The translations under genes were made by a program, and so were the position numbers. 64,000 nucleotides of DNA, taken from the NCBI RefSeq assembly GCF_017348835.2, contig NZ_CP071375.1; one strand, given 5' to 3'. Positions 57,280 to 57,355 of the stretch are shown here, piece after piece (position 1 is the first letter of the stretch; each line of letters begins with the position of its first letter). The stretch is from Escherichia coli. GTDB lineage: Bacteria; Pseudomonadota; Gammaproteobacteria; Enterobacterales; Enterobacteriaceae. The notes below the pieces were generated by a model, which did not search any database, was not told the origin of the DNA, and worked only from the letters and a program-made list of their open reading frames with translations.

Positions 57280-57355
57280 GGGTGATTAGCTCAGTTGGTA
57301 GAGCAGTTGACTTTTAATCAATTGGTCGCAGGTTCGAATCCTGCACGACCCACCA
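57280..57355 (+). tRNA. Chimeric tRNA gene: tRNA-Val 5' acceptor strand (GGGTGAT) fused to a tRNA-Lys(UUU) body and 3' end; function uncertain (possible pseudo-tRNA)
   Basis: 76 nt GGGTGATTAGCTCAGTTGGTAGAGCAGTTGACTTTTAATCAATTGGTCGCAGGTTCGAATCCTGCACGACCCACCA. The upstream flank (GTAGTATCCAACGCAGTATC) resembles the valT flank. The acceptor stem has G5-G68 and A6-C67 mismatches. Confidence 0.75.

Follow-up and report, generated by a model that had tools for sequence, protein, structure and literature searches.

In the lysT operon of an Escherichia coli strain, two adjacent tRNA genes, valZ and lysY, were found fused into one hybrid gene, in which the 5' end of a tRNA-Val is joined to the body of a tRNA-Lys(UUU). 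The fusion lies in a stretch of DNA of 64,000 nt (hereafter, the window). We consider it likely that a PE164-like E. coli has undergone a real 79-bp deletion in its lysT operon, confined to this strain, with the effect of a near-neutral or slightly deleterious loss of dosage. The operon is a known one carrying a new allele, and the type of event, deletion between short repeats in tandem tRNA genes, is well known.

The lysT tRNA operon sits between cpoB (56008-56799) and nadA (57964-59007), and the features recognised in it are collected in Table 1. Six tRNA genes were predicted by ARAGORN in the window, in the order Lys-Val-Lys-hybrid-Lys-Lys with the hybrid called as Lys (UUU), and seven were predicted at the same locus in K-12, which agrees with the preliminary description of this DNA in the gene counts and in the shortage of one tRNA-Val(UAC). 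The cpoB-nadA location, the sequences of the tRNA genes, the valZ leader and the lysY-lysZ spacer are shared with the K-12 operon, whereas the window differs in having six genes, in the fusion of valZ and lysY by a 79-bp deletion and in the absence of four RtT-like repeats. A simple consensus scan of the region between cpoB and lysT gave no sigma-70 promoter site, and a terminator consensus scan missed the evident hairpin downstream of lysQ, probably since an A-T extension of the stem consumes the T-run. In K-12, a single transcript of ~1100 nt that covers all genes is made from the lysT promoter and ends in a Rho-independent terminator, which is taken off by RNase P; the same enzyme separates the tRNAs one by one in the 3' to 5' direction, with RNase E cutting the long spacers as a back-up only (Agrawal, Mohanty and Kushner 2014, PMC4176162). 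The K-12 lysT transcription unit is essential because it holds five of the six Lys(UUU) genes (PMC11480407).

Table 1. Features of the lysT operon region and of the hybrid gene, with positions numbered from the first nucleotide of the window.
Feature	Position	Strand	Basis and remarks
cpoB-lysT intergenic region, upstream of the operon	56800..56963	+	164/164 nt identical to K-12
lysT, tRNA-Lys(UUU)	56964..57039	+	ARAGORN; Rfam tRNA 79.2 bits
valT, tRNA-Val(UAC), only intact Val gene remaining in the operon	57075..57150	+	ARAGORN; Rfam 65.9 bits
lysW, tRNA-Lys(UUU), 2 nt 3' of valT	57153..57228	+	ARAGORN; Rfam 79.2 bits
Spacer and valZ-type 5' leader	57229..57279	+	Same in L008 and PE164 upstream of intact valZ; ancestral state
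Hybrid valZ'-'lysY, tRNA-like, UUU, A73, encoded CCA	57280..57355	+	ARAGORN; Rfam 68.0 bits; folding
Val-derived segment GGGTGA of the hybrid	57280..57285	+	Positions 5-6 GA diagnostic of Val, CG in Lys (alignments)
TTAGCTCAG, 9-nt block common to valZ and lysY	57286..57294	+	Breakpoint somewhere inside (alignment gap boundaries)
Lys-derived segment of the hybrid: D-loop from T16, anticodon arm, T arm, ACGACCC and ACCA	57295..57355	+	Identical to the other four Lys genes
lysY-lysZ spacer with RtT-like repeat	57356..57501	+	One substitution relative to K-12, at 57357
lysZ, tRNA-Lys(UUU)	57502..57577	+	ARAGORN; Rfam 79.2 bits
lysQ, tRNA-Lys(UUU), last gene	57611..57686	+	ARAGORN; Rfam 79.2 bits
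Terminator-like hairpin GCGCC-CTAAA-GGCGC followed by T6	57694..57717	+	Read from sequence; aligned region has one substitution relative to K-12, at 57693

The hybrid is a gene of 76 nt on the plus strand (GGGTGATTAGCTCAGTTGGTAGAGCAGTTGACTTTTAATCAATTGGTCGCAGGTTCGAATCCTGCACGACCCACCA) with the layout GGGTGA-TTAGCTCAG-TTGGTAGAGCAGTTGAC...CACGACCCACCA, that is, a Val 5' end, a block common to both parents and a tRNA-Lys(UUU) body with its 3' strand. Bases 1-15 are the same as in the tRNA-Val gene at 57075, bases 7-76 are the same as in all four tRNA-Lys genes (56964, 57153, 57502 and 57611), and the 20 nt directly upstream (GTAGTATCCAACGCAGTATC) are of the Val type, like the flanks upstream of valT and of K-12 valZ. 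These alignments bear out the earlier interpretation of the gene as a chimera with a Val 5' end and a Val-type flank on a tRNA-Lys(UUU) body. The point of fusion is spanned by GGGTGATTAGCTCAGTTGGTAGAGC; the 12-mer at the junction is GATTAGCTCAGT, which lies inside GGGTGATTAGCTCAGTTGGTAGAGCAG, and a 32-nt junction sequence occurs once in the window, with 0 occurrences expected from shuffles.

In the acceptor stem, G1-C72, G2-C71, G3-C70, U4-A69 and U7-A66 can pair, and the two mismatches proposed beforehand, G5/G68 and A6/C67, are read directly from the sequence, so that five of the seven positions expected of a 7-bp acceptor stem are pairable. The D, anticodon and T arms and the encoded 3' CCA are intact, as positions 7-76 are those of the Lys genes, and the T-stem pairs have folding probabilities of at least 0.99. 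With respect to the Rfam tRNA family (RF00005), the hybrid scores far above the gathering score of 29, below the normal Lys genes and above valT (Table 1), and it is also accepted by ARAGORN as a tRNA gene of the Lys UUU type, so that automated annotation will list it among the ordinary tRNA-Lys genes. The anticodon (ttt at position 34, ARAGORN) and the discriminator A73, followed by CCA, were retained in the Lys form, as had been stated; UUU and A73 are the main identity elements for LysRS. The anticodon of tRNA-Val(UAC) is absent from the hybrid, in which only positions 1-6 and the leader are derived from Val, and the major determinants for ValRS are A35 and C36.

The closest relative of the window is PE164 (E. 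coli, complete genome, pig, Nanjing), which is a near-clone. Over the full 64,000 nt the two differ by 2 substitutions and one gap of 79 bp at valZ/lysY, with no other indel. The substitutions are located at 8698 (phrB R279S) and 45591 (intergenic); PhrB R279, as in the window, is the common allele and occurs in 155 blocks of the collection, and S279 is the rare form of PE164. The gap comprises the remainder of valZ, a CTC spacer and the start of lysY. The preliminary description had deduced precisely this loss, with the breakpoint in TTAGCTCAG, and its size is fixed by the alignments at exactly 79 bp. A second relative, the contig L008 (GCA_034296255.1), encodes exactly the rare CpoB of the window and has the same short spacers but seven tRNA genes; over 6.7 kb it shows 0 mismatches and one 79-nt gap in comparison with the window. 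The intact valZ-lysY pair, with 2 Val genes, 5 Lys genes and 0 junctions per operon, is present in PE164, F2_81, L008, L018, L019 and L020. Since relatives with seven genes exist on an otherwise identical background, the hybrid is to be regarded as a single and very recent event.

Alignment of the window with K-12, where valZ and lysY lie 3 nt apart, has five gaps. One of these is again 79 nt long; it starts directly behind GGGTGA in valZ and stops at the edge of TTAGCTCAG in lysY. The other four correspond to RtT-like repeats in the spacers, which have copies of the tRNA-Lys 3' end at their borders, and are lineage polymorphisms, separate from the fusion event. Spacers in the window measure 35, 2, 51, 146 and 33 nt, and those in K-12 measure 135, 2, 149, 3, 146 and 132 nt. 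Judging from these sequences, the true ancestor is a PE164-like operon of seven genes that had already lost the four RtT-like repeats, and not one with K-12-like spacers.

As to the repeats themselves, four of those present in K-12 (~98-156 nt, each bounded by ATCCTGCACGACCCACCA) are missing from the window, PE164 and L008 alike, and in the window the sites of loss are 57040-57074, 57229-57279, 57578-57610 and 57687-57760. The sole RtT-like repeat remaining in the operon is that of the lysY-lysZ spacer (57356-57501), which ends in a copy of the tRNA-Lys 3' end, ATCCTGCACGACCCACCA, at 57436-57453; an Rfam match to RtT (RF00391) was obtained at 57287-57453 with 54.4 bits (gathering score 45). 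Elsewhere in the window, at ~36000-47800 between sucD and cydA, the annotation of PE164 lists methylaspartate mutase (glmS/glmL/subunit E) and methylaspartate ammonia-lyase, together with an AtuA-family protein, a dicarboxylate symporter, a class I fumarate hydratase, cobO and a LysR regulator. To our knowledge, this island, which is of the glutamate-fermentation type, is absent from K-12.

The distribution of the fusion was assessed with junction-specific queries, as a query with the whole operon was made uninformative by the joining of BLAST pieces across identical repeats. A survey of other strains for the same junction had been advised in the preliminary description. A 101-nt junction query gave no match of >= 99% identity in 5,426 complete E. 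coli genomes, and its top matches, in 5,319 genomes, consisted of two pieces spanning 180 nt (101 + 79), i.e. the intact pair. Likewise, the 76-nt hybrid had no 100% match at any locus of the same 5,426 genomes and was not found in PLSDB plasmids, and a 40-nt junction pattern had no match in JGI metagenome contigs or IMG/VR. The possibility raised at the outset, that K-12 itself might have this sequence, is excluded by the junction and hybrid searches of complete E. coli genomes. Among ~185,000 GTDB species representatives, the 32-mer of the junction was matched five times, once by a true hybrid, in Enterobacteriaceae bacterium LSJC7; the other four matches were rejected as hybrids, since each is an ordinary alphaproteobacterial tRNA-Lys(CUU) gene whose 3' strand, ATCACCC, fits its 5' strand. 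The searchable literature, in which older subscription papers are thinly covered, yielded no previous account of a hybrid between Val and Lys tRNA genes. In summary, the fusion is an ordinary mutation of real appearance, found within E. coli only in this strain.

Among complete E. coli genomes, the sequence closest to the hybrid (98.7%) came from E. coli 2013C-3264. It was rejected as a fusion, being a G6>A point variant of lysT that is unrelated to the event described here. This lysT copy (L021 901-976, NZ_CP027544.1) starts with GGGTCATTAGC, has the single mismatch A6/C67 and belongs to a finished genome; therefore, acceptor-stem defects in redundant Lys copies do persist in nature.

A junction seen in no other E. 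coli genome, in a strain whose near-clone PE164 is intact, is also the pattern that would be produced by an error, in which valZ and lysY are separate in the isolate and the 79 bp were lost in assembly or consensus building. The locus is a dense array of identical 76-nt repeats of the kind at which drafts break: the contig L009 breaks off right at valZ, and L010-L012 stop short of the array. It may be added that the PE164 record is assembly version.2, so such records do get revised. Nevertheless, we regard an artefact as unlikely. The two units are 71% identical and share only 9 nt of exact homology, which is too little for a collapse in a k-mer graph or by overlap, and a de Bruijn assembler, we infer, cannot output novel junction k-mers that are absent from the reads. 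Furthermore, the lack of any other indel relative to PE164 in 64 kb speaks for a high consensus quality, and the common phrB allele in the window, rare in PE164, fits a sister isolate better than an uncorrected PE164 draft.

The hybrid of LSJC7 (AMFN01000003.1, L004 328-403) is identical to that of the window in 76 of 76 nt and has the same mismatches, G5/G68 and A6/C67, and a Val-type upstream spacer. It differs in location, since it closes a Val array that adjoins ligA-zipA-cysZ and not cpoB-nadA, with no further gene ahead of the terminator; this array we take, from the K-12 map, to be the paralogous valU-valX-valY-lysV operon, and the context gltX-valU...lysV-xapR was observed in E. coli (APEC 102026 locus). 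Its upstream spacer, although of the Val type, is specific to LSJC7. From the different operon and the LSJC7-specific spacer it follows that this hybrid arose independently, and therefore Val-Lys junctions appear prone to such a fusion. That the two hybrids are identical is no surprise, as the same 76 nt result wherever in the shared block the two conserved genes are joined in register. The block shared by the Val and Lys genes has 20 nt in LSJC7, compared with 9 nt in the window, because the LSJC7 Val gene has a Lys-like D-loop. The reality of the LSJC7 hybrid is less certain: it lies at the start of a draft contig and has the 20-nt shared block, and misassembly is a more serious possibility there. 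Directly upstream of it in this array (L004 212-287) is a complete tRNA-Val(UAC) body with the anticodon TCC, which ARAGORN calls tRNA-Gly; one change, A35>C, separates it from the Val copy next to it, and it is probably a non-functional or mis-identity copy.

That an identical sequence of 76 nt arose twice, in different genera and in different operons, could be taken as convergence on a functional tRNA-Lys variant that is under selection, for example because it interacts differently with an elongation factor, with a tRNA-targeting toxin or with an enzyme of tRNA processing; the still good tRNA score and the natural occurrence of a GGGUGAU 5' strand in alphaproteobacterial tRNA-Lys genes could be cited in the same sense. 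We find this very improbable. The natural GGGUGAU genes carry the matching 3' strand AUCACCC, which the hybrids do not, and the identity of the two reflects mutational constraint, as explained above. Moreover, a selected variant would be poorly reconciled with a single occurrence among ~185,000 species representatives, with none in 5,426 E. coli genomes or in metagenome contigs and with a near-clone that is devoid of the hybrid.

Regarding the origin of the deletion, ancestral valZ and lysY form a direct repeat of two copies with a period of 79 nt and 71% identity, in which TTAGCTCAG is the longest exact shared block at the 5' end, inside a stretch of 26 nt with 22 identical positions. L008, PE164 and K-12 each have two copies of this block, 79 nt apart, and the window has one, with a gap of exactly 79 nt; the ancestor thus has the flanking short direct repeat and the junction retains one copy of it. 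In the window one period of 79 nt has been lost with one copy of TTAGCTCAG kept, which places the valZ leader and GGGTGA on the body of lysY, and we propose that the two close short repeats in valZ and lysY misaligned. The misalignment most likely proceeded through RecA-independent slippage during replication and not through a RecA-mediated crossover. Repeats of 9 nt separated by less than 100 bp belong to the classic class in which deletions form independently of RecA, and slippage fits a 9-nt exact block repeated at a distance of 79 nt better than crossover does.

The preliminary description had favoured an unequal crossover within the 9-nt block; the deletion at the block stands, but for the crossover no reciprocal product was found and slippage fits better. 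That the same deletion arose between sister chromosomes by a route that depends on RecA, either unequal crossing-over or gene conversion, is, in our estimate, rather unlikely, albeit with some points in its favour, namely the wider 5' region of valZ and lysY (22 of 26 nt identical), the 20-nt shared block of LSJC7 and the appearance of homologous recombination in bigger losses on the scale of whole units, such as that of a Val-Lys unit in PV15-279. For RecA to recombine efficiently in E. coli, an uninterrupted homology of roughly 20-30 bp is required, against the 9 nt available here. A reciprocal product, with a Lys 5' end on a Val body, was absent from the 5,426 complete E. coli genomes and from metagenomes, which is weak evidence on the mechanism, and one product cannot separate slippage from crossover.

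Slipped-misalignment deletions between short direct repeats in E. coli are reportedly known from lacI deletion studies and from the tandem-repeat work of Lovett and colleagues. The present case resembles them in the 9-nt exact repeats 79 nt apart, the retention of one copy and the loss of one period, and differs in that the repeats are the 5' parts of two different tRNA genes, so that an in-register hybrid RNA gene results. In the classic duplication-loss genetics of tyrT-tyrV / su3, unequal recombination between tandem tRNA genes is said to take place; there, too, tandem tRNA copy number is altered through misaligned pairing, whereas the genes involved are near-identical, belong to the same isoacceptor and regenerate a normal gene. 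In the window, the partners serve different amino acids and a mismatched acceptor stem is the outcome.

Clearly, these Val and Lys tRNA arrays are unstable in general. The lysT operon of O157:H7 PV15-279 (L007 2465-3077) has five genes, Lys-Val-Lys-Lys-Lys, with one whole Val-Lys unit missing. The valU operon of E. coli APEC 102026 (L022 872-936, NZ_CP087290.1) contains an additional Val unit, labelled tRNA-OTHER by PGAP, whose anticodon loop has been removed by an internal deletion of 11 nt (GAGCACCT|AGGGGGTC). The number of Lys-like places per complete E. coli genome ranges from 2 to 11, with a median of 6.

Consequences for the product were modelled with ViennaRNA, bearing in mind that nearest-neighbour folding leaves out tertiary contacts and modifications. 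The wild-type Lys cloverleaf has an energy of -26.4 kcal/mol, and the best cloverleaf of the hybrid reaches about -20.0, a predicted loss of about 6 kcal/mol. The ensemble probability of acceptor pairs 1-4 drops from ~1.0 in Lys to ~0.2 in the hybrid, in which pairs 5-7 are at or near 0. The structure of minimum energy (-24.4) adopts a shifted register, with G2-G5 paired to C72-C75 and G45-C48 to G68-C71, and buries the CCA end; a modelled change of G68C alone restores the acceptor stem. In the context of the precursor, the probability of the acceptor stem is zero for the hybrid and likewise for intact lysY with a leader of 130 nt, so this calculation does not discriminate between them and cannot predict cleavage by RNase P. 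The valZ-type leader GGTGGGTTCG (57237-57246) is complementary to the Lys 3' strand CGACCCACC (57347-57354), and in the folds computed for the precursor the leader-3' strand helix displaces the acceptor stem of the hybrid, and the same is predicted for intact lysY with the long leader.

The deletion costs the operon one tRNA-Val(UAC) gene and would replace lysY by a hybrid transcript with all Lys features outside the acceptor stem, whose helix is predicted to be interrupted by a 2x2 internal loop (G5/G68, A6/C67). If matured, the product should accept lysine, and no miscoding is expected of it. We predict that it folds poorly, is a weaker substrate of RNase P and is a candidate for the 3'-end surveillance and decay of unstable tRNAs. 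For tRNAs with unstable acceptor stems, Wellner et al. (2018, PMC5824355) summarise a route that leads from refolding on the CCA-adding enzyme through CCACCA tagging or polyadenylation to degradation by RNase R. With its 5' GGG, weak stem and predicted pairing of G with C74/C75, the hybrid is a plausible client of the CCACCA/poly(A) pathway as far as the folding model goes. An unstable acceptor stem and 5' G1G2 are what it has in common with targets of surveillance by the CCA-adding enzyme, poly(A) polymerase I and RNase R/PNPase; the difference is that the hybrid is linked to this system by sequence prediction only. On the modelled structures, and with the Lys anticodon and A73 kept, it is probably either a tRNA-Lys that matures poorly or a null copy, although it could be more functional than the model suggests, given the persisting A6/C67 defect in lysT of 2013C-3264.

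Intact genes remaining in the operon of the window are four Lys and one Val, and further copies, lysV and valUXY in K-12, are presumably located elsewhere in the genome. With these genes remaining, the overall outcome is probably a drop in dosage that is close to neutral or slightly deleterious, and the hybrid is probably a weakened spare copy left in a highly redundant operon.

A larger cost would arise if the hybrid, as the fourth of six genes, were poorly cleaved and delayed the release of lysT, valT and lysW, a polar defect that would exceed the loss of one gene copy. The weak predicted acceptor stem would be compatible with it, as would the directional processing of the lysT transcript by RNase P (PMC4176162), the essentiality of the transcription unit in K-12 (PMC11480407) and the lack, in this lineage, of most of the long spacers at which RNase E provides back-up cleavage in K-12. 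We nevertheless judge this effect improbable: the argument is entirely inferential, folding of the precursor gave no usable discrimination, and the strain was viable enough for isolation and sequencing. Recognition by RNase P depends chiefly on the T arm, the CCA and the top of the acceptor stem, all of which are intact in the hybrid, with the mismatches at pairs 5 and 6.

A related and decidedly improbable proposal is that, within the essential lysT polycistron, the hybrid acts as a roadblock or a decoy, which slows the 3' to 5' RNase P cascade by its malformed acceptor stem or is continually tagged with CCACCA or polyadenylated, and which thereby measurably alters the supply of the upstream Lys and Val tRNAs. 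If this were true, the isolate would allow the directional-processing model and the surveillance of bacterial tRNAs to be tested in nature, and the recurrence in LSJC7 would show that abutting Val-Lys genes are a mutational hotspot and that this has physiological consequences.

Returning to the deletion with a slight loss of dosage, which we prefer, the fusion by itself matters little, being one more case of turnover in copy number and structure in a redundant tandem tRNA array of a single strain. It is, however, a clean case, a one-step event on an otherwise identical 64-kb background, and shows that abutting genes for different tRNAs can be fused in register through their conserved 5' and D-arm sequence. 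In view of the independent hybrid of LSJC7, tRNA gene counts from draft genomes may occasionally include such fusions. Furthermore, with a 2x2 internal loop in its acceptor stem, the hybrid offers a natural substrate for studies of RNase P and of 3'-end quality control, and a natural case for asking whether a defective member perturbs the processing of its neighbours in the operon.
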